Positions 4,835 through 53,071 are shown, numbered from the stretch's first letter. The stretch: 53,071 nucleotides of DNA from Gammaproteobacteria bacterium (GCA_016218345.1 JACREH010000116.1:1-53071), one strand, 5' to 3'. Made by a program: numbers and translations. The notes: generated by a model not told the origin, from the sequence alone.

Positions 4835-4924
4835 GGAGGGGTGGCCGAGCGGTTGAAGGCACCGGTCTTGAAAACCGGCAGGGGCTTACGCTCCTCGTGG
4901 GTTCGAATCCCACCCCCTCCGCCA
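4835..4924 (+). tRNA. tRNA-Ser (anticodon UGA)
   Basis: GGAGGGG/CCCCTCC acceptor stem, anticodon arm CCGGT-CTTGAAA-ACCGG, long variable arm, GTTCGAATCC, encoded CCA; 90 nt. Confidence 0.97.
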
Positions 4925-4988
4925 ATTTCTGCGTAGCGGGAAATGGCATATTCATAGACATGAGAACCTGGAGGGTGAGAATCCCGCC

Positions 4989-5036
4989 GTGCAGGATGCA
5001 CAAGTGCCGTGAAGTACAGGATGTACGGGAGTGGCC
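4989..5036 (+). repeat. GGA-loop double-hairpin repeat, copy 1
   Basis: GTGCA-GGA-TGCAC aagTGCCGTG aa GTACA-GGA-TGTAC gggAGTGGCC. Confidence 0.75.
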
Positions 5037-5054
5037 TCCCTCTCCACCAATTAT

Positions 5055-5103
5055 CTCCAAGGACGGAGTGTATGCCGCGGGAGCGCTGGACGCGCGGCGC
5101 TCC
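5055..5103 (+). repeat. GGA-loop double-hairpin repeat, copy 2
   Basis: CTCC-aaGGAc-GGAG tgtaTGCCGCG gga GCGC-tGGAc-GCGC ggcgctcc. Confidence 0.7.
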
Positions 5104-5128
5104 GTGCATGCGACGGTACGAAAAATCC

Positions 5129-5479
5129 TGTCATTTCGACCGAAGGGAGAAATCCGATGTTTTCAGAAAAGTGTTACTACGTGTATCTGCTGACGAATCA
5201 GAACAACCGGGTAATGTACGTCGGAATCACAAATGACCTTGCGCGACGGGTTTATGAGCATAAAAACAAACTAGTGAAGGGGTTTACCGAAAAAATACAA
5301 CGTAAACAAGCTTGTCTATTTCGAGGAAACGAATGACGTGCAGGCCGCGATTACGAGGGAGAAGCAGATCAAAAAATGGCGCCGGGGGAAAAAGAACAAC
5401 CTGGTTGTGAGCGTCAATCCTGAATGGAGGGACCTGAACATTGAGTAATTCTAGATTTCTCGCTTCGCTCGAAATGACA
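5129..5479. mobile_element. Inverted-repeat-bounded GIY-YIG cassette
   Basis: 26-bp IRs TGTCATTTCGACCGAAGGGAGAAATC (5129-5154) and GATTTCTCGCTTCGCTCGAAATGACA (5454-5479), 24/26 complementary, tightly enclosing an AT-richer nuclease gene. Confidence 0.75.
5157..5448 (+). pseudogene. Small GIY-YIG nuclease, +1 frameshift in A6 run
   Basis: YYVYLL...MYVGITNDLARRVYEHK; deleting one A at 5290-5295 restores ...FTEKYNVNKLVYFEE...AITREKQIKKWRR...NPEWRDL to stop at 5448. Confidence 0.85.
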
Positions 5480-5544
5480 AATCGCTCTTTCGAGGTATCT
5501 ATCCAATACATAGATTGAATTGTAATCCGCGAATCAGGCAGGCA

Positions 5545-6393
5545 ATGGCATACCGCACGTTAGTCGAACCCGAACAATTAGCAGCACACCTGGACGACCC
5601 CAGTTGGGTGACGGTCGATTGCCGTTTCGATTTGCACGAGCCCGACAGCGGGGGCTATGCCTATGGAGCCCGGCACATTCCCGGCGCGCGTTATGCGCAT
5701 TTGGACAACGATCTGTCCGGCCGCAGGCGTGCCACCACCGGCCGCCATCCCTTGCCCGATCCGGGCGCGCTCTCCGAGACGCTCGGGCGCTGGGGCATCG
5801 ATAATGCCACCCAGGTGGTGGTTTACGACGACGTGAAGGGCGCGATCGCCGCGCGCCTGTGGTGGTTGCTGCGCTGGCTGGGGCATGAGCCGGTGGCGGT
5901 GCTGAACGGCGGACTGACGGCGTGGTTGCGTGCCGGCCTGCCGATGACCGATGAACTTCCACGCGTGCACGCCATGCGCTTCGAGCCGCACCCGGACGAT
6001 GCGCGCTGGGTCGATACGCGCTTCATCGAAGAGCGCCTCGGCGCGGACGTCTGCCGGCTGATCGACGCGCGCAGCGCGGTGCGGTTTCGCGGTGAACAAG
6101 AGCCGTTCGATCCGGTTGCCGGGCATATCCCCGGCGCGCTGAACCGGCCGCTCGACCGAAATTTCGGGCCGGACGGCAAGTTTCTGCCGGCCGCGCAGTT
6201 GCGCGCCGAATTTCAGGAACTCGCCCGGGGGAAAGGCACCGCCGACATGATTCATATGTGCGGTTCGGGCGTGACCGCCTGCCACAATCTGCTGGCCATG
6301 GAGGTCGCCGGTCTCGGCGAGGGGCGTCTGTATGTGGACTCGTGGAGTGGGTGGATCACCCACCGCACCCGGCCGGTCGCGACCGGCGAGTAA
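5545..6393 (+). CDS. sseA: Tandem-domain rhodanese / 3-mercaptopyruvate sulfurtransferase (SseA family)
   Basis: HIPGA, GRHPLP, AARLWWLL, GHIPGA, active-site CGSGVTAC, LY.DSWSGW. Confidence 0.92.
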   Translation: MAYRTLVEPEQLAAHLDDPSWVTVDCRFDLHEPDSGGYAYGARHIPGARYAHLDNDLSGRRRATTGRHPLPDPGALSETLGRWGIDNATQVVVYDDVKGAIAARLWWLLRWLGHEPVAVLNGGLTAWLRAGLPMTDELPRVHAMRFEPHPDDARWVDTRFIEERLGADVCRLIDARSAVRFRGEQEPFDPVAGHIPGALNRPLDRNFGPDGKFLPAAQLRAEFQELARGKGTADMIHMCGSGVTACHNLLAMEVAGLGEGRLYVDSWSGWITHRTRPVATGE

Positions 6394-6458
6394 CCGGCAG
6401 GAGCGTTATCGACTAGAATTATTTCATGGTCCATGGATGCGAACGGAGATTCAATCTT

Positions 6459-6956
6459 ATGACGATGCGCGTCCTTTCATTACTAGTGGCTGTGTTGTTG
6501 AGCATCGTGCCCGCTGCGTACGCCGATGCGCCGGCGGGTTACGATTTTTTATCTTTCGATGACGGCCTGCGCCAGGCTCGCCAGCACGAAAAGAAGCTGT
6601 TCGTCTACTTCGGGCGTCACGGTTGCGGCTGGTGCGAGAAGATGAACCGCGAGGTATTCAGCGCGGACGAGATAAAAAAACGTTACAGCGCCCACTACGT
6701 GCTGGTGTATGTGGATACCGAAAGCGGCCGCCGGCTGACGTTGCCGAACGGCGAACGCGTCACCGAAATGGAATTCGCCGCGCGCCAGCGCATTATCGCC
6801 ACGCCCATGTTCGCGTTTTTCGAGCCGGACGGGACGTTCATCTTCAAGATCAGCGGCCTGCAAAGCATCGGTGATTTCAAAGAGTACGATCGCTACGTCC
6901 AGGACGGCCATTACCGTCGCCAGGGCCTGCGCGATTTCCTCGCGGCGCCGCCGTGA
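6459..6956 (+). CDS. Exported thioredoxin-fold protein (SoxW/DsbD-gamma-like)
   Basis: Signal peptide, CGWC motif, cis-Pro TP motif; GGAG before ATG 6459. Confidence 0.8.
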   Translation: MTMRVLSLLVAVLLSIVPAAYADAPAGYDFLSFDDGLRQARQHEKKLFVYFGRHGCGWCEKMNREVFSADEIKKRYSAHYVLVYVDTESGRRLTLPNGERVTEMEFAARQRIIATPMFAFFEPDGTFIFKISGLQSIGDFKEYDRYVQDGHYRRQGLRDFLAAPP

Positions 6957-8188
6957 AACGCATTACCGCTTGGACGGTACTGTGGCTCAGTACCGCGGCA
7001 TCGGCCCAACCCTGGGAATTTTCCCCGCCGCTGCCGGTAACCGCGGTCCACGGCGCGGGCATTTATCATCATCTGGATTCCTCCGGACGCAAGAATATCG
7101 CGGCCTCGGGCGAGACCGTGGCAATCGCCTGGGCAGACAATCGCTCCGGCAGCTCGCAGGTCTATTTCACTTTCAAATCGAAAGCGGATTCGTCGTTCGC
7201 ACGCGAGCAGCGCGTGAGCGACGGCAAGAACGCCTACGAACCGGTCATCGCCGCGCTCGCTAACGGCCGCTTTGCGATCGGCTGGGAGCAGGACGGCCAG
7301 GTATGGATGCGGCCTGTTCAGGCCGGGACCCTGGGCCGCGCGCAACTGCTGGCCGACGACGGCAGCCAGATCAATATGGCGCTCAATGTCCGGGGCCAAG
7401 GCTATGCCGTCTGGGTACAACGGGTCGGACGCCTCAACCGCGCGATGCTGGCGCGTTTCGAGATTTCCGCGGAGCAGGTGGCGCGCGTGCACGCCGCTCA
7501 GCCGGTGGATGCGCAACCGCCTGCGGCCGATCAGTTCTATCCTGGTGTGACGCTGACCGAAGCGGGGGTGATGGTGGTGTGGGAAGACCGCCGCCACGGC
7601 CACAGCGTGCTGTATTACAGTCACAGCGCCGACGGCCGGCGCTTCAGCGCCCCGAAACGCCTGAACGAGCGCGGCCCGAGCCGTTCCGGCGGTGGGTACG
7701 GCAAGGGCACGGGCGTGGCGCGCGCGGCGCTGGCCGCGCACGGCAAGAACGCCGTCACCGCGGTGTGGCTGGACAAGCGCGACTTCGAGGGCGGCTACGA
7801 CGTTTATGGTGCGGTCAGCCACGACGGCGGGCGCAGTTTCGGCAAAAATCAGAAGATCCAGGATCAGTTCGGAGACATCTATGGACAATGGCACGCGGCC
7901 ATCGCCGGCCATGCCTCCGGCCTGCGCGCGGCGGTGTGGGACGATGACCGCGACGACACCGCCGATGTCTGGCTGGCCTGGCCGGTGCAGAACGGCTGGA
8001 GTGAAAACCTGGCGGTGCCGGGCGCCAGCGGTCTCGGCGAACAGACCCAGCCGAGTGTCGCGCTCGACGCCGCCGGCGATCTGCATCTCGCCTGGATCGA
8101 GCGCGACGCGCCGGACGCGCCGACCCGGCTGCGTTATCTGCACGCCAAACGGTCGACGCCGGACGCGCCGACCGTTCAAGATAAATAA
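6953..8188 (+). CDS. Exported BNR/Asp-box (sialidase-like) beta-propeller protein
   Basis: Signal peptide; Asp-boxes SADGRRFS and SHDGGRSFG; repeated W.D.R motifs; GTGA overlap with upstream gene. Confidence 0.7.
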   Translation: MKRITAWTVLWLSTAASAQPWEFSPPLPVTAVHGAGIYHHLDSSGRKNIAASGETVAIAWADNRSGSSQVYFTFKSKADSSFAREQRVSDGKNAYEPVIAALANGRFAIGWEQDGQVWMRPVQAGTLGRAQLLADDGSQINMALNVRGQGYAVWVQRVGRLNRAMLARFEISAEQVARVHAAQPVDAQPPAADQFYPGVTLTEAGVMVVWEDRRHGHSVLYYSHSADGRRFSAPKRLNERGPSRSGGGYGKGTGVARAALAAHGKNAVTAVWLDKRDFEGGYDVYGAVSHDGGRSFGKNQKIQDQFGDIYGQWHAAIAGHASGLRAAVWDDDRDDTADVWLAWPVQNGWSENLAVPGASGLGEQTQPSVALDAAGDLHLAWIERDAPDAPTRLRYLHAKRSTPDAPTVQDK

Positions 8189-8212
8189 CAACTAATCAAG
8201 GACACTGTCTGG

Positions 8213-9547
8213 ATGACGCCGGCGACGGGACGGGCAACCACGCTACTCCGCGGCAGCCTCTGGGTCGGGTTATACCTGGCGCTGGTGCTGCTGCCGTTGG
8301 CGGTGTTGCTGCTCGGCGAGCGGCCGCCGGGCTCGGGTTTCGCCTGGGATTTTTCGGTGGCCCTCGGGTTCGGGGCGCTTTCGCTGCTGGGCTCGATGTT
8401 CGTGCTCACCGCGCGCTTCCGGTGGATGGCGCCGGCCTTCGGCATCGACATCGTTTACTATTTCCATCGCTGGGTGGCGGTGCTCGCGTTCGGGCTGGTG
8501 CTGGCCCACCCGCTGCTGCTGATCGGCGTCGAACCGTTGCTGGTCGAGTATCTCAAGCCCGGCGCACCCTGGTACATGCTCGCCGGCGTCGGCGCGCTGA
8601 TCGCGCTCGGCACATTGGTCGTCAGTTCACTGTGGCGCAAGCGCCTGCGCCTGCATTACGACGCCTGGCGCCGTCTGCACGCGCTGCTGGCGGTGTTGGC
8701 TGTGGGGCTGGCGATCGCGCATGTGATCGGCGTGGACTACTACGTCGGCACGCCGGGGAAGCGCGCGCTCTGGACGGTCTTGGCGGTTTCCTGGCTGGTG
8801 TTGCTGTTGCATGTGCGGCTCGTCCGGCCGGTCCGGTTGCTGCGCCGTCCGTATCGTGTGGTCGGCGTGCAGGCCGAGCGCGGCGATGCCTGGACCCTGA
8901 CCCTGGAACCCTCCGGCCACGACGGACTGCGTTTTCAGCCCGGGCAATTCGTCTGGCTGTCGCTCGGGCGCTCGCCGTTCGCCATGCAGGAGCACCCGTT
9001 TTCGATTGCCACCAGCGCCGAGCGGCCGGCGCGGCTCGGGTTGACTATCAAGTGCCTGGGGGATTTTACCGCGCGCATCAAGGACGTGTTGCCCGGCCAG
9101 CGGGCGTATGTCGACGGACCGTTCGGCGCGTTCTCGGTCGATCTTCATCCGGCGCCGGGTTACGTGTTCATCGCCGGCGGCATCGGCGTCGCGCCGATTC
9201 TGGGCACGTTGCGCACGCTCGCCGACCGTAACGATCACCGCCCGTTGGTGCTGTTCTATGCCTATAAAAATCTGGAGCGCCTGACCGCCTATGAATACCT
9301 GGAGGCGCTACGCGCCCGGCTAGATCTGCGGATCGTGTATATCCTGTTCGAACCGCCGCCCGCATGGTCGGGCGAGAGCGGCTGCCTGACGAAAACCATC
9401 GTGCAACGCCACCTGCCGGCCGGTTACCGCGAGCAGATGTTTTTTATCTGCGGGCCGACGGCCATGACCGATGTGACCGAGAAGATCCTCGCGGAGATCG
9501 GCGTGCCGATCGGCCGGGTCCATACCGAACTGTTCGATTTGGTATGA
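8213..9547 (+). CDS. Ferric-reductase-like transmembrane domain + FAD/NAD(P)H-binding domain (bacterial Nox-like oxidoreductase)
   Basis: About 6 TM helices with two heme His pairs (FHRW...AHP; LHAL...AHV); FQPGQF, HPFS, GGIGVAP, CGP and terminal ELF motifs. Confidence 0.9.
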   Translation: MTPATGRATTLLRGSLWVGLYLALVLLPLAVLLLGERPPGSGFAWDFSVALGFGALSLLGSMFVLTARFRWMAPAFGIDIVYYFHRWVAVLAFGLVLAHPLLLIGVEPLLVEYLKPGAPWYMLAGVGALIALGTLVVSSLWRKRLRLHYDAWRRLHALLAVLAVGLAIAHVIGVDYYVGTPGKRALWTVLAVSWLVLLLHVRLVRPVRLLRRPYRVVGVQAERGDAWTLTLEPSGHDGLRFQPGQFVWLSLGRSPFAMQEHPFSIATSAERPARLGLTIKCLGDFTARIKDVLPGQRAYVDGPFGAFSVDLHPAPGYVFIAGGIGVAPILGTLRTLADRNDHRPLVLFYAYKNLERLTAYEYLEALRARLDLRIVYILFEPPPAWSGESGCLTKTIVQRHLPAGYREQMFFICGPTAMTDVTEKILAEIGVPIGRVHTELFDLV

Positions 9548-9555
9548 TCTGAACC

Positions 9556-9648
9556 ATGCGAATCTGGCTGGCGCGCGCCTTGGCGATAGTCACCGGTCTG
9601 ATACTGGTGGCGGTGTCGGCGGTCTTCGCGCTGCTGCAGAACCCGTGA
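9556..9648 (+). CDS. 30-aa single-pass membrane peptide (not in ORF track)
   Basis: MRIWLARALAIVTGLILVAVSAVFALLQNP; fills the gap in the operon and its stop overlaps the next start (GTGA). Confidence 0.65.
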   Translation: MRIWLARALAIVTGLILVAVSAVFALLQNP

Positions 9649-10004
9649 GCGCCGCCTTTTCCGTGAAGCGGCGCGCGCTGGCGTTGCTGGCGGCGGCCTG
9701 GTGCGCGGCCGCGGCCGGTGCCGGCGTACCGGCGGTCGTGGACATTCCCTCTCGCGCGGGGGCGGTGACCTTCGCGCACGCGCCCCATGCGCAGATCGGC
9801 TGCACGGACTGCCATCACACCGGCGTGGAGCAGGGCTGCCGCGCCTGCCACACTGCGACTTCGACGGCCGCGCGCACCGGCCGGGAGGCGTTCCACGCGT
9901 CCTGTATCGGTTGCCATCTAAAGGACCTGAAGGCCGGCGCTAAGACCGGTCCGGCCAAGCGCTGCAGCGCCTGTCATGTCCAGCCGCAGCGCCCCTCTCC
10001 GTGA
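9645..10004 (+). CDS. Periplasmic tetraheme cytochrome c3 (class III)
   Basis: Signal peptide; F.H..H motif; four CxxCH (CTDCH, CRACH, CIGCH, CSACH); 8 His in total. Confidence 0.85.
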   Translation: MSAAFSVKRRALALLAAAWCAAAAGAGVPAVVDIPSRAGAVTFAHAPHAQIGCTDCHHTGVEQGCRACHTATSTAARTGREAFHASCIGCHLKDLKAGAKTGPAKRCSACHVQPQRPSP

Positions 10005-10025
10005 CCGGCGCCCGCCATGGATGGC

Positions 10026-10073
10026 GGCCGCTTCGGGCTCCTGCCCTTACGCGGCATTACTCCGTCCATGGAG
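10026..10073 (-). repeat. GGA-loop double-hairpin repeat, copy 3
   Basis: Minus strand CTCC-atGGAc-GGAG taaTGCCGCG taa GGGC-aGGA-GCCC gaAGCGGCC; flanked by extra hairpin CCGCCA-tGGA-TGGCGG (10012-10027). Confidence 0.75.
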
Positions 10074-10228
10074 GGCAGAAGTGCGGAATCCGCAAACGCG
10101 CCATCCCTGGCCCGCGGCCCTCGTCTCGATCCCATCGGCGAAAACGCAGGAGCAGTTTTTCCGCCCGTCTCGATTGTCGCGCGGTCCGCACACCTGTTAT
10201 CCTTCGGGTTTTGCAAGGCTCGGCCGCG

Positions 10229-11327
10229 ATGGAAGAACTCAACCCGCTGTTCACCAAGCTCAAAGACCTGACGGCGCGTTCGGCGACGTTACGGGGGTAT
10301 CTTTGACTTCGACGCCAAGCAGGAACGGCTCGCCGAGGTGCGGCGTGAACTGGAACAGCCGGATGTCTGGAACAATCCGGCGCGCGCCCAGGAATTAGGC
10401 CGCGAGCGCGCCCGCCTCGAGGCGCAGGTCGAAGTCCTCATGCGACTGGATACGCACCTCGGCGAGGCCGGCGATTTATTGGAACTGGCGCGTGCCGAGA
10501 GCGACGCCGACCTGATTCCACCGATCACGAAGGACATCGAGGCACTCGAGACCGAATTGGCCGCGCTCGAATTCCGGCGCATGTTCGCGGGCGAGATGGA
10601 CGCCAATAACGCCTTCCTCGATATTCAATCCGGCTCGGGCGGCACCGAGGCGCAGGATTGGGCGGCGATGCTGCTGCGCATGTACCTGCGCTGGGGCGAG
10701 GCGCACGGCTACAAGACCGAAGTAGTCGAGGAGTCGCCGGCCGAGGTGGCCGGCATCAAGAGCGCCACCGTCAAGTTCGAGGGGCCGTACGCCTACGGCT
10801 GGCTGCGCACCGAGACCGGCGTGCACCGGCTGGTGCGCAAGTCGCCGTTCGATTCCGGCAACCGCCGCCATACCTCGTTCGCGTCGGTGTTCGTCTACCC
10901 GGAGGTCGACGAGGACGTCGACATCGAGATCAACCCGGCCGATCTGCGCGTCGACACCTATCGGGCGAGCGGCGCCGGCGGCCAGCACGTCAATCGCACC
11001 GAGTCGGCGATCCGCATCACCCACGTCCCGACCGGCATCGTGGTGCAATGTCAGAACGACCGCTCGCAGCACAAGAACCGCTCGGCGGCGATGAACATGT
11101 TGAAGGCGCGCCTGTACGAGGCCGAGATGCGCAAGAAGCGCGAGACCCAGCAGAAGCTCGAGGCCTCGAAGTCGGACATCACCTGGGGCAGCCAGATCCG
11201 CTCGTACGTGCTCGACCAGTCGCGCATCAAGGACCTGCGCACCGGCATCGAGACCGCCAACACCCAGGCGGTGCTGGATGGCGATCTCGATAAATTCATG
11301 GAAGCGAGTTTGAAGAGTGGATTGTAA
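10229..11327 (+). CDS. prfB: Peptide chain release factor 2 (programmed +1 frameshift)
   Basis: ATG 10229, GGGGG-TAT-CTT-TGA-C shift site at 10293-10307; SPF and GGQ motifs in the second frame. Confidence 0.97.
10293..10307 (+). promoter_or_regulatory. prfB autoregulatory frameshift site
   Basis: SD-like GGGGG 3 nt before CTT TGA C; CTT is codon 25. Confidence 0.95.
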
Positions 11328-11335
11328 TATTTTTA

Positions 11336-11423
11336 GCCACAGATGAACGCAGATAATCTCAAGAGATTCAATATGCGCACAGGTCCGCCTTTCCATCCAT
11401 ATCCATCTGCGTTCATCTGTGGC
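11336..11423. repeat. CAGATGAAC-family palindrome, copy B
   Basis: Perfect 19-bp IR GCCACAGATGAACGCAGAT (11336-11354) / ATCTGCGTTCATCTGTGGC (11405-11423). Confidence 0.9.
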
Positions 11424-17402: not shown

Positions 17403-18602
17403 GTGGCATGGAATGAACCGGGTCCCGGCGGCAAAGAGCCGTGGGGGCAGCGTAAAAAACCCCAAGGTCCTCCCGACTTGGACCAGATTCTCAAGAACCT
17501 CCAAGAGCGCGCGCGCGGTCTGTTCGGCGGCAAGGGGCGTGGTGGCGGCGGTGAGGGCGGCGCCAACAAGGTGAGCGGCTTCGGCGCCGGCTTGATCGCC
17601 ATGGTCGCCGTGATCCTATGGCTGGCGAGCGGCTTCTATATCGTGAACGAAGGCCAGCGCGGCGTGGTGTTGCAATTCGGCGCCAAGACCGAGATCACCG
17701 ACGCCGGTCTGCACTGGCGCTGGCCGTTTCCGCTCGAGACGGTCGAGAAGGTGAACGTCTCGCAGGTCTCGACCATCGAGATCGGCTACCGCAAGAGCGA
17801 CAAGACCGGCGGCACCAGCAAGGTTCCGAAAGAGGCCTTGATGCTCACCCAGGACGAGAACATCCTCGACATCGAGTTCGCGGTCCAATACAAGATCAAG
17901 GACGCGGCCGATTACCTGTTCAATGTGCGCGACATCCAGACCACGCTGATGTCCGCCACCGAATCGGCGGTGCGCGAGGTGGTCGGCAAGAGCGATCTGG
18001 ACTTCATCATCACCGAGGGCCGCGACCAGGTCGGGCAAAATACCCGCGTGCTGTTGCAGGAGATCATGGATCGCTATAAATCCGGCATACAGATCGTGAC
18101 CGTGCAGATGCAAAAGGCCCTGCCGCCGGAAGAGGTCAAGGCGGCGTTCGACGACGCCGTGAAGGCGCGCGAGGACGAGCAGCGCCTGAAGAACGAGGCC
18201 GAGGCGTTCGCCAACGACATGATCCCGCGCGCTCGCGGTAACGCCGCGCGCATGTTGCAGGAGGCCGAGGGTTACAAGGCCAGCGTCATCGCCCGCGCCG
18301 AGGGCGACGCCAAGCGCTTCAGCCAGATCGTCGCCGAGTACGCCAAGGCGCCGGGCGTGACTCGCGATCGCCTGTATATCGAGACGATGGAGCGGGTGTT
18401 CTCGAATACCACCAAGATCCTGGTCGATCAAAAGGCCGGCAACAACATTCTGTATCTGCCGTTGGACAAGCTGGTGGCACAGGGCGCGACCCGGACCGCC
18501 GGTCCGGTCAACACCTTGCAGCCGTTGCCGGAACCGGACAGCCCGGCGCCGGCCGCACGCGACCGCACCCGCGACAGCCAGCGCACGCGGGGGACGCCGT
18601 AA
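17403..18602 (+). CDS. hflK: FtsH modulator HflK
   Basis: MAWNEPG, GPPDLD, SPFH domain, YLPLDK. Confidence 0.97.
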   Translation: MAWNEPGPGGKEPWGQRKKPQGPPDLDQILKNLQERARGLFGGKGRGGGGEGGANKVSGFGAGLIAMVAVILWLASGFYIVNEGQRGVVLQFGAKTEITDAGLHWRWPFPLETVEKVNVSQVSTIEIGYRKSDKTGGTSKVPKEALMLTQDENILDIEFAVQYKIKDAADYLFNVRDIQTTLMSATESAVREVVGKSDLDFIITEGRDQVGQNTRVLLQEIMDRYKSGIQIVTVQMQKALPPEEVKAAFDDAVKAREDEQRLKNEAEAFANDMIPRARGNAARMLQEAEGYKASVIARAEGDAKRFSQIVAEYAKAPGVTRDRLYIETMERVFSNTTKILVDQKAGNNILYLPLDKLVAQGATRTAGPVNTLQPLPEPDSPAPAARDRTRDSQRTRGTP

Positions 18603-19471
18603 TGAATCAAACAAAATTTCTGGCCATCGCCGGGTTGGTGCTGATCGCGCTGTTGATCGTGAGCGGCACGGTTTACACCATCGACGAGCGCGAAAAGGCC
18701 GTAGTGGTGCGCTTCGGTCAGGTGATCCGCTACGACGACACCCCGGGCATCCACGTTAAGACGCCGTTCCTGGAAACGGTGAAGGTATACGACGCGCGCA
18801 TCCTGACCATGGACGCCGATCCACAGCCGTTCCTGACCAAGGAAAAGAAGAGCGTGATCGTCGATTCCTACGTGAAGTGGCGGATCGTCGACCTGCTCAA
18901 GTATTACGTCTCGGTGGGCGGCGACGAGCAAAAGGCCAAGGACCGTCTGGCGCAGCTCATCAACAGCGGCCTGCGCGACGAGTTCGGCAAGCGCAACCTG
19001 CGCGACGTGGTGTCCGGCGATCGCCGCAAGATCATGGAAATCCTGAGCGCGAACACCGACAAGGAAGCGGGCGAGTATGGCATCGAGGTGGTGGACGTGC
19101 GCATTCAGCGCGTCGACCTGCCGGCCGAGGTGAGCCAGTCGGTGTACCGGCGCATGGAGGCCGAGCGCGCGCGTATCGCCAAGGAGCTGCGCGCCCAGGG
19201 CGCCGAGGAGGCCGAGAAGATTCGCGCCAAGGCCGAACGCCAGCGCGAAGTCCTGCTGGCCGAGGCCTACCGCGACGCCGAGCGCCTGCGCGGCGAGGGG
19301 GACGCGCGCGCCACCGCCACCTACGGCCGGGCGTTCGGCGCCAATCCGGAGTTTTATTCCCTGTATCGCAGTCTCAACGCCTACAAGGAGAGCTTCAAGG
19401 ATAAAGACGATATCCTGATCGTCGATCCGAGCGCCGATTTCTTCCGCTACTTCAAGAATCCGCGGCGCTAG
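18602..19471 (+). CDS. hflC: FtsH modulator HflC
   Basis: SPFH domain, RMEAER, YRSLNAY. Confidence 0.97.
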   Translation: MNQTKFLAIAGLVLIALLIVSGTVYTIDEREKAVVVRFGQVIRYDDTPGIHVKTPFLETVKVYDARILTMDADPQPFLTKEKKSVIVDSYVKWRIVDLLKYYVSVGGDEQKAKDRLAQLINSGLRDEFGKRNLRDVVSGDRRKIMEILSANTDKEAGEYGIEVVDVRIQRVDLPAEVSQSVYRRMEAERARIAKELRAQGAEEAEKIRAKAERQREVLLAEAYRDAERLRGEGDARATATYGRAFGANPEFYSLYRSLNAYKESFKDKDDILIVDPSADFFRYFKNPRR

Positions 19472-20936: not shown

Positions 20937-20974
20937 GCTAATAATTTTTTACGCAAAGGCGCAAAAAATACCTC

Positions 20975-21030
20975 AGCCACAGATGAACGCAGATAAAGAT
21001 TGAATTATTTATCTGTGTTCATCTGTGGCT
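20975..21030. repeat. CAGATGAAC-family palindrome, copy C
   Basis: 23-bp arms AGCCACAGATGAACGCAGATAAA / TTTATCTGTGTTCATCTGTGGCT with one G-T pair. Confidence 0.9.
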
Positions 21031-52930: not shown

Positions 52931-53071
52931 GGAAGGTCTGAACAAGTCCATCCCTGGCTTGTTCAGACACGCAAAACGAAAAACGTGGTTTTCGTTTTGC
53001 TTCATTTTTCAAACACAGTGCGTGTTTGAAAAATGCCCGGCCCTCCTGGCCGGACGGGAACCTCTGACTTA
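52931..53071. repeat. Four-hairpin non-coding element (MITE/REP-like), possibly truncated by the window end
   Basis: Perfect stems of 11, 12, 14 and 6 bp in tandem at 52936-52968, 52971-53000, 53003-53035 and 53037-53053. Confidence 0.75.

Follow-up and report, generated by a model that had tools for sequence, protein, structure and literature searches.

A dispersed 52-nt twin GGA-hairpin unit in a gammaproteobacterial genome: a probable small mobile element of the REP kind with likeness to TwoAYGGAY

In a 53,071-nt contig of a Gammaproteobacteria bacterium (GCA_016218345.1, JACREH010000116.1:1-53071; the whole of this stretch is referred to here as the window), we observe three copies of a unit of 51 to 52 nt, a module predicted to fold into a short hairpin and, 3' of it, a second one raised on a closing stem of 5 bp, with GGA at the tip of each. 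The copy number of this unit in the genome, its spread across other genomes, and its compensated stems show that it is a dispersed, structured, and covarying repeat, as the original prediction, made from the sequence of the window, had proposed. We consider it probable that the unit is a small non-autonomous mobile element of the repetitive extragenic palindromic (REP)/bacterial interspersed mosaic element (BIME) kind, belonging to a wider group of TwoAYGGAY-like elements.

Copy 1 (4985-5036, plus strand) consists of GTGCA-GGA-TGCAC, the linker GTGCCGTG, GTACA-GGA-TGTAC, and the tail AGTGGCC, with GCCGT/GTGGC as closing stem. Copy 3 (10027-10078, minus strand) has CTCC-ATGGAC-GGAG, ATGCCGCG, GGGC-AGGA-GCCC, and the tail AGCGGCC, with GCCGC/GCGGC as closing stem. 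In copy 2 (5051-5103, plus strand), the first hairpin CTCC-AAGGAC-GGAG and the linker TGCCGCG are intact and common to copy 3, while the second hairpin and the tail are eroded. The places, stems, GGA loops, TGCCGYG linker, and AGYGGCC tail first described for the three copies were all confirmed. Because circularity was to be avoided, a covariance model (R2) was built only from 93 matches at 80 loci in other named genomes and was searched against the whole 53-kb window with filters off. The three copies occupy ranks 1 to 3, with copy 1 at 4978-5042(+) (47.3 bits, E = 1.4e-8), copy 3 at 10020-10084(-) (43.0 bits, E = 1.2e-7), and copy 2 at 5044-5105(+) (18.9 bits, E = 0.018), and the next match has an E value of 0.14. 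A second model (R1), an alignment of 39 units from a genome census plus the three window copies, scores 56.7 bits for copy 1, 60.8 bits for copy 3, and 22.7 bits (E = 0.0011) for copy 2. Copies 1 and 3 are therefore strong and copy 2, with its R2 E value, is borderline, in agreement with its having been called degenerate from the start. Single-sequence RNA folding z-scores are −0.05, −1.05, and −2.33 for copies 1, 2, and 3, respectively, which is unremarkable overall and weak for copies 1 and 2. The minimum-energy fold of copy 1 is the twin-hairpin architecture; the evidence for structure is covariation across copies, not folding stability.

With respect to covariation, 58 distinct units of the genome were re-aligned to the model, and 83.1% of the cells in stem positions are paired, against 73.9% in shuffles (reached by 0 of 500), with 90 double-change cells against 32.2 in shuffles, comparisons that overstate the significance, as the copies are related to one another; slid controls pair at 22 to 51%. 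In the closing stem, pair 40-113 is CG in 33 units, UA in 20, and UG in 3, with the variants TGCCGCG..AGCGGCC and TGTCGCG..AGCGACC, so that the linker and tail, suggested earlier as a possible closure of the second hairpin, indeed covary. Pairs of the first hairpin show similar exchanges (GC 40/CG 15; UA 28/CG 15/UG 6/GC 4; AU 24/GC 15/CG 5), and in the cross-genome set of 93 matches, in which helices 2 and 3 are fixed by the search pattern, this hairpin has UA 43/CG 37 and AU 43/GC 39. Stems that differ yet pair around a fixed loop had been noticed in the three window copies, and the same holds across the family: GGA and the two loop-adjacent pairs, C-G and A-U, are near-invariant, the outer stem pairs vary, and both tips read CA-(N)GGA-UG. 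Among 59 units, GGA lies in the predicted loop of hairpin 1 in 52 and of hairpin 2 in 53; GGGA (16) and GGA (12) are the most frequent loops of hairpin 1, and GGA (17) is that of hairpin 2, with AYGGAY proper, such as ATGGAC in copy 3, in the minority.

The source genome comprises 1.85 Mb in 122 contigs and is 80.6% complete. A regular-expression census of it gave 43 hits, 2 of which were judged spurious, and the covariance-model search for further copies with R1 returned 62 matches at E ≤ 0.01 (150 of 1504 candidates scored) as well as many in relatives. Within the order sample, 27 of 41 genomes have matches (source genome included), with up to 124 to 127 scored matches per genome; 8 of the 9 families carry the unit, and two genera are without it (0/6 and 0/4 genomes searched). 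A class sample of one genome from each of 150 other gammaproteobacterial families yielded 30 with matches at E ≤ 1e-6 (the class-sample tallies for the unit, Y1, and TwoAYGGAY include an unpublished genome, G180, which has no unit and has a Y1 match), and in the phylum sample 9 of 150 genomes match, 7 of them from a single family belonging to another class. Across orders, the units are nearly identical, an exact 33-letter pattern being found at at least 117 loci; among the pattern matches listed, named carriers are Acidiferrobacterales, Steroidobacteraceae, Sulfuricaulis, and "Muproteobacteria," as well as the Lysobacterales Tahibacter soli, Dokdonella, Thermomonas, and Arenimonas.

Exact filled and empty sites and a related strain that lacks the copy 3 cluster are both signs of the mobility that had been suspected. 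The first site is a repeat of about 190 nt that resembles a miniature inverted-repeat transposable element (MITE), of which 5 copies are empty (on contigs C48, C72, C79, C82, and C121, with window positions 52931-53071 among the empty copies) and 6 are filled (C10, C16, C17, two on C118, and C37); filled copies exceed empty ones by exactly 52 nt, placed between TTTTG and CGTGTCT, and no target sequence is duplicated. The second site is a hairpin within a TwoAYGGAY-like element, which is empty on C108, reading TTCTTTG-CACGAG-CAAAGAA, and on C59 holds a 51-nt unit between TTTG and CACGAG. The unit thus inserts without target duplication, as an exact block of 51 to 52 nt after TTTG and often within the hairpin loop of a different repeat. 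Across the genome, the base at −1 is G in 34 of 51 units and the base at +1 is C in 44 of 51, and in most copies the flanks are not complementary. As for the related strain, a 1008-nt contig from another sample covers 9555-9981 and 10166-10400 with 26 nt between them, so that the order of cytochrome c3 and then prfB is kept and the 184-nt cluster with copy 3 is absent. Copy 1 is retained at the same place in related strains. Positions 5010 and 5032 are C in those strains and T in the window; both pairs, G-C in the former, are therefore G.U on the GGA strand in the window. In addition, in one species of a sister genus a csp gene is flanked by units on either side; three congeners show a plain terminator there, in an alignment that makes presence and absence visible and is too diverged for exact boundaries.

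Copies 1 and 2, which have tRNA-Ser(TGA) (4835-4924, plus strand) as left neighbor, and copy 3, near prfB, do bracket an accessory block by position, as originally pointed out, but this is no evidence that the units moved the block, and the significance of the arrangement is doubtful because units occur about once per 30 kb. Among 17 family relatives, none has a unit within 1.5 kb of prfB, and none of five accessory-block proteins is found within 1.5 kb of prfB at these loci. Sixteen relatives have a different conserved gene directly upstream of prfB, of which no homologue was found in this assembly, so that the rearrangement at prfB could not be reconstructed.

The units are concentrated behind the 3' ends of genes. 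We find 51 of the 62 matches in intergenic DNA. Convergent gene pairs account for 13 of them and divergent pairs for 4; where both neighboring genes run in one direction, 13 copies share that direction and 14 oppose it, indicating no strand bias, and copy 3 is antisense to both of its neighbors. The preference extends to GGA loops in general, since among perfect hairpins with a stem of at least 6 bp, a GGA/TCC loop is found in 228 of 1187 intergenic (19%) and 168 of 3703 genic (4.5%) cases. Intergenic GGA-loop hairpins (58 sense, 60 antisense) are densest between convergent genes. The excess is confined to intergenic DNA, as GGA-loop hairpins counted genome-wide regardless of context show none, and clusters of three or more GGA hairpins are not above those of other trinucleotides.

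Several points weigh against a mobile element. The genes used for these counts come from a crude self-trained open reading frame (ORF) caller (1605 genes, 84% coding), and the filled MITE copies may all stem from one insertion, which leaves about two independent events. A neutral repeat would not usually be so nearly identical across orders, which points to a conserved partner, possibly CsrA. Furthermore, no mobilizer was identified: the sole Y1_Tnp gene of the genome, on C92, has unrelated inverted repeats at its flanks, no unit was found within 1.5 kb of any of 20 RAYT-like (REP-associated tyrosine transposase) loci in six unit-carrying relatives, and units are present in genomes without a Y1_Tnp match, for example G034 (99% complete, 15 matches). 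Most of the 20 RAYT-like loci bear inverted repeats of their own. On C92, the flanking inverted repeat of the RAYT-like Y1 transposase gene (18075-18820) contains GTAGAATGTCCCCA, a motif with 3 occurrences in the genome, all on that contig.

These data bear directly on whether the unit could be a classical REP mobilized by a cognate RAYT, with the gene flanked by two inverted copies, an explanation that we judge improbable. Like REPs and BIMEs, the units are extragenic imperfect palindromes in tens to hundreds per genome, with compensatory stem changes, mosaic nesting with other repeats, and a preference for gene 3' ends; unlike them, they have two hairpins that share one orientation instead of forming an inverted pair. 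The filled sites recall the action of IS200/IS605-type enzymes, which insert beside a short fixed sequence and leave the target unduplicated. In the class sample, a Y1_Tnp match is commoner in unit carriers (26/30) than in non-carriers (63/120), but within the order it does not separate them (23/27 carriers against 10/14 non-carriers), and both kinship and genome size confound the two comparisons. A high-copy relative has one RAYT-like gene (G025:C226) flanked by hairpins with CA-GGA-TG tips, but these are single and directly oriented, and the unit model does not match them. Enzyme genes beside the copies, the association that would point to a mobilizer, did not emerge for Y1/RAYT genes, as an adjoining unit is present at 0 of the 21 examined. 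By the definition given in Nunvar 2010 (PMC2817692), REPs carry a GT(A/G)G head, which is absent here, the bases before the closing stem being NAAU/NAGU. A miniature derived from IS200/IS605 elements (palindrome-associated transposable element [PATE]-like) would share the exact, duplication-free insertion, the fixed short sequence, and hairpin-rich ends, but the unit is much shorter, and we found no associated TnpA or TnpB.

For the small mobile element that we favor, the course of events would be as follows. The unit would move as single-stranded DNA by means of a trans-acting enzyme, either of the HUH/Y1 type or of another, that presumably reads the hairpin tips, and individual copies would mostly be neutral passengers. 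Where transcription runs in the GGA sense, a copy would place two CsrA-type sites and a stable hairpin into a 3' untranslated region.

The closest likeness of the unit is to TwoAYGGAY (RF01731), an RNA motif for which Weinberg 2010 is reportedly the source. Both have two sequential hairpins with tips that, in the RF01731 model consensus, read CA-N-GGA-UG, and both are multi-copy and dispersed in Gammaproteobacteria, with short T-rich repeats and other repeat arrays at their flanks. TwoAYGGAY differs in its length (115 to 168 nt against 52 nt) and in its basal stem around both hairpins, which the unit lacks, its linker pairing instead with the 3' tail; moreover, the unit loops are mostly GGGA or GGA and not AYGGAY, and the unit stands alone in most carriers. 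RF01731, which has an Rfam gathering cut-off of 43 bits, had no match at E ≤ 1 in any of five genomes with units (G000, G009, G023, G024, and G025); the model works elsewhere, as it matches in 7 of the 150 genomes of the class sample and exceeds the cut-off in 5. Conversely, R1 matched none of ten TwoAYGGAY loci at E ≤ 1. A physical connection is seen in G159, where all 5 units, their stems AT-rich yet still paired, follow a TwoAYGGAY match of the same strand at 26 to 59 nt on its 3' side, in two cases forming divergent pairs. The unit represents a compact form of the TwoAYGGAY-type twin GGA-hairpin elements and, in places, is appended to them on the 3' side.

This relation also qualifies how novel the family is. 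At the gathering threshold, Rfam finds tRNA-Ser alone in the whole window, an Rfam 15 scan of five unit loci at E ≤ 10 returned noise only, and literature searches revealed no publication containing 13- to 14-mers of the unit and none linking REP, CsrA, and GGA together. The unit itself therefore matches no Rfam 15 family and does not appear in the papers searched, but to call it undescribed, as was done originally, is an overstatement, because TwoAYGGAY has already been published as an element of this kind, with twin GGA-loop hairpins in many copies, a mobile-like spread, and a proposed role as a Csr/Rsm sponge. TwoAYGGAY was proposed as a CsrA ligand in a passage of Gardner and Eldai 2015 (PMC4333381). 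Passages of a preprint on an extended Pseudomonadota TwoAYGGAY family (bioRxiv 10.64898/2026.09.22.753630) report tens to 202 copies per Pseudomonas genome, with short flanking repeats, downstream REP arrays, divergent doublets, and variants with an extra AYGGAY hairpin; the expansion is termed mobile-element-like, and the link to Csr/Rsm is left unresolved in those passages.

A different explanation for the constancy of the tips is that the module is kept as a docking site for CsrA/RsmA, one dimer binding each sense copy via its two GGA tips. The copies would then put host mRNA under Csr control or form a dispersed sponge, and their spread would be secondary. We regard this as doubtful, although the tips speak for it. 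They match the CsrA consensus RUACARGGAUGU from systematic evolution of ligands by exponential enrichment, which a review gives with GGA in a hairpin loop (PMC4347634), and in the unit, too, GGA lies in a short hairpin loop. We count 8 exact occurrences of this 12-mer genome-wide, all of them in intergenic DNA and 7 in units, against about 0.3 expected from base composition. Binding by the unit tips is plausible from this consensus match. The tip-to-tip spacing in the unit is about 28 nt, which is inside the range for CsrA dual-site binding.

Docking would likewise be consistent with the fixation of only the tip and two closing pairs while outer pairs vary, with the intergenic excess of GGA/TCC loops, with the sharing of the tips by at least three other repeat scaffolds of the genome, and with the near-identity of the unit across orders. 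In well-aligned stem pairs, on the GGA strand, G.T (26) exceeds A.C (7) among copies that are not independent, and the two changes of copy 1 relative to related strains are both from G-C to G.U. In addition, tandem units in a relative reach 28.8 bits with the Rfam RsmY model, below the cut-off, and the sponge idea is already in print for TwoAYGGAY. The strand data stand against docking, since sense and antisense orientations are balanced both for the units and for all intergenic GGA-loop hairpins, and copy 3 is antisense to both neighbors. The excess of G.T is gone in the cross-genome set (8 against 7). Furthermore, a search for csrA did not find the gene in this 80.6%-complete assembly, with 37 of 41 order genomes having csrA, and csrA is equally present where units are not: in genus g3, 6 of 6 genomes have csrA and 0 of 6 have units.

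As a separate observation, CsrA-family matches number 6 to 10 in each of G024, G025, G009, and G014, many of them weak and paralogue-like (28 to 50 bits), and most unit-free genomes have 1 to 2; unit matches are 110 to 127 in each of G024, G025, and G009 and 13 in G014. The raised CsrA-family counts may merely reflect the load of mobile elements.

Mobility and binding could also be combined in a self-spreading 52-nt cassette that installs a dual high-affinity CsrA/RsmA site wherever it lands, thereby rewiring the Csr regulon or acting as a dispersed sponge, a view that we offer tentatively. If it held, mobile DNA would rewire the Csr regulon or build a genome-wide sponge across many gammaproteobacterial orders, the tips being held by a conserved host protein and the stems left free to drift.

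Copies 1 and 2 together (4985-5103) might instead constitute a stand-alone Rsm/Csr-type small RNA (sRNA) gene with four GGA hairpins, which seems to us very unlikely. Five GGA-loop hairpins within 130 nt, as here, are found at only two other places in the genome. A weak sigma-70-like match (TAGACA-16-GAGAAT, 4955-4982, plus strand; a consensus match only, 9/12) ends 3 nt before copy 1, with 2 such sites found near copies 1 and 2 against 0.6 expected. However, no terminator-like site was found 3' of the two copies in the region scanned, the whole stretch folds with a z-score of −0.59, and both units are ordinary members of the dispersed family. The sponge sRNAs CsrB, RsmY, and RsmZ resemble these copies in having several GGA-loop hairpins in a row, and tandem units give the weak RsmY signal mentioned above; they differ in being single-copy genes with their own promoter and terminator, whereas the unit is dispersed on both strands. 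Searches of five genomes with the CsrB, RsmY, and RsmZ models gave nothing over the cut-off. One RsmZ-like hit of 32.8 bits on C108 was discarded, as it has no GGA loops and consists of another repeat plus a terminator, from which the score mainly derives.

Twin GGA-hairpin repeats represent an emerging, widespread class of bacterial non-coding elements, the spread and function of which are poorly understood. To this class, the present family adds the smallest form so far, at 52 nt, boundaries that filled and empty sites define exactly, TTTG as a candidate target, a duplication-free mode of insertion, and a physical link to TwoAYGGAY. The presence of the unit in harmless species available in culture, among them Tahibacter soli, makes both CsrA binding and the mobilizer directly testable, and many intergenic regions of environmental Gammaproteobacteria that register as "structured" would be accounted for by a model of the family.

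The tips of the unit recur on other scaffolds of the genome, at least three in number (family B, the MITE-like element, and a 13-copy element). Further GGA hairpins that had been noted near copy 3 are real, but they sit on different repeat scaffolds and not on the unit. The first, a single hairpin CGCC-ATGGAT-GGCG (10012-10027, plus strand), lies within a composite of about 95 nt around copy 3 that recurs on C59 and C19. The second, at 10098-10115, is part of a 54-nt unit of a second repeat family with GGA tips (family B; 10087-10140, minus strand), with the hairpin GCCA-GGGA-TGGC; a motif scan gave 32 hits, 19 of which are in a family B context judging from those listed, and tandem arrays occur on C28, C84, and C100.

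The element at 52931-53071 (minus strand), also listed originally among the GGA-loop hairpins, is real and has a terminal hairpin with a unit-like GGA tip, but it is a MITE-like composite repeat, cut by the contig end, and this copy is empty of the 52-nt unit. Its imperfect terminal inverted repeats, TAGGGAACCTCTGA ... TCAGACCTTCCCTA, enclose four hairpins; the motif at the left end, TA[AG]GGAACCTCTGA, has 12 occurrences genome-wide, and the element is seen on C10, C16, C17, C48, C72, C79, C118, and C121. The third scaffold, an element of about 200 nt in 13 copies (on C4, C26, C27, C38, C51, C59, C71, C78, C98, C118, and C120), has a basal stem around two GGA-tipped hairpins, which is the layout of TwoAYGGAY, with two alternative compensating stems; one copy holds the unit in its 3' hairpin, and RF01731 did not detect the element at E ≤ 1.

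We also observed features near the copies that are separate from the unit. A GIY-YIG ORF at 5157-5336 is frameshifted and continues in another frame to 5448, flanked by inverted repeats of about 27 nt (5129-5155 and 5453-5479). Many metagenome contigs join these two repeats with only 26 to 39 other letters between them, and 5129-5479 looks like a small mobile GIY-YIG cassette inside a repeat. A contig from a different sample (run X6) brings 6418 and 9795 together, separated by 23 other letters, so that a related strain may lack the genes for a thioredoxin-like protein, a 411-aa unknown protein, and a ferric-reductase-like protein. The start of prfB is at 10229 (MEELNPL...) and its main frame at 10338-11327, consistent with the usual programmed +1 frameshift. 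Finally, a palindromic repeat built on CAGATGAACGCAGAT is present in the window at 2555-2637, 11330-11354, and 20970-20994; this 15-mer occurs 42 times in the genome, and the copy on C41 has a twin-hairpin unit at its center.

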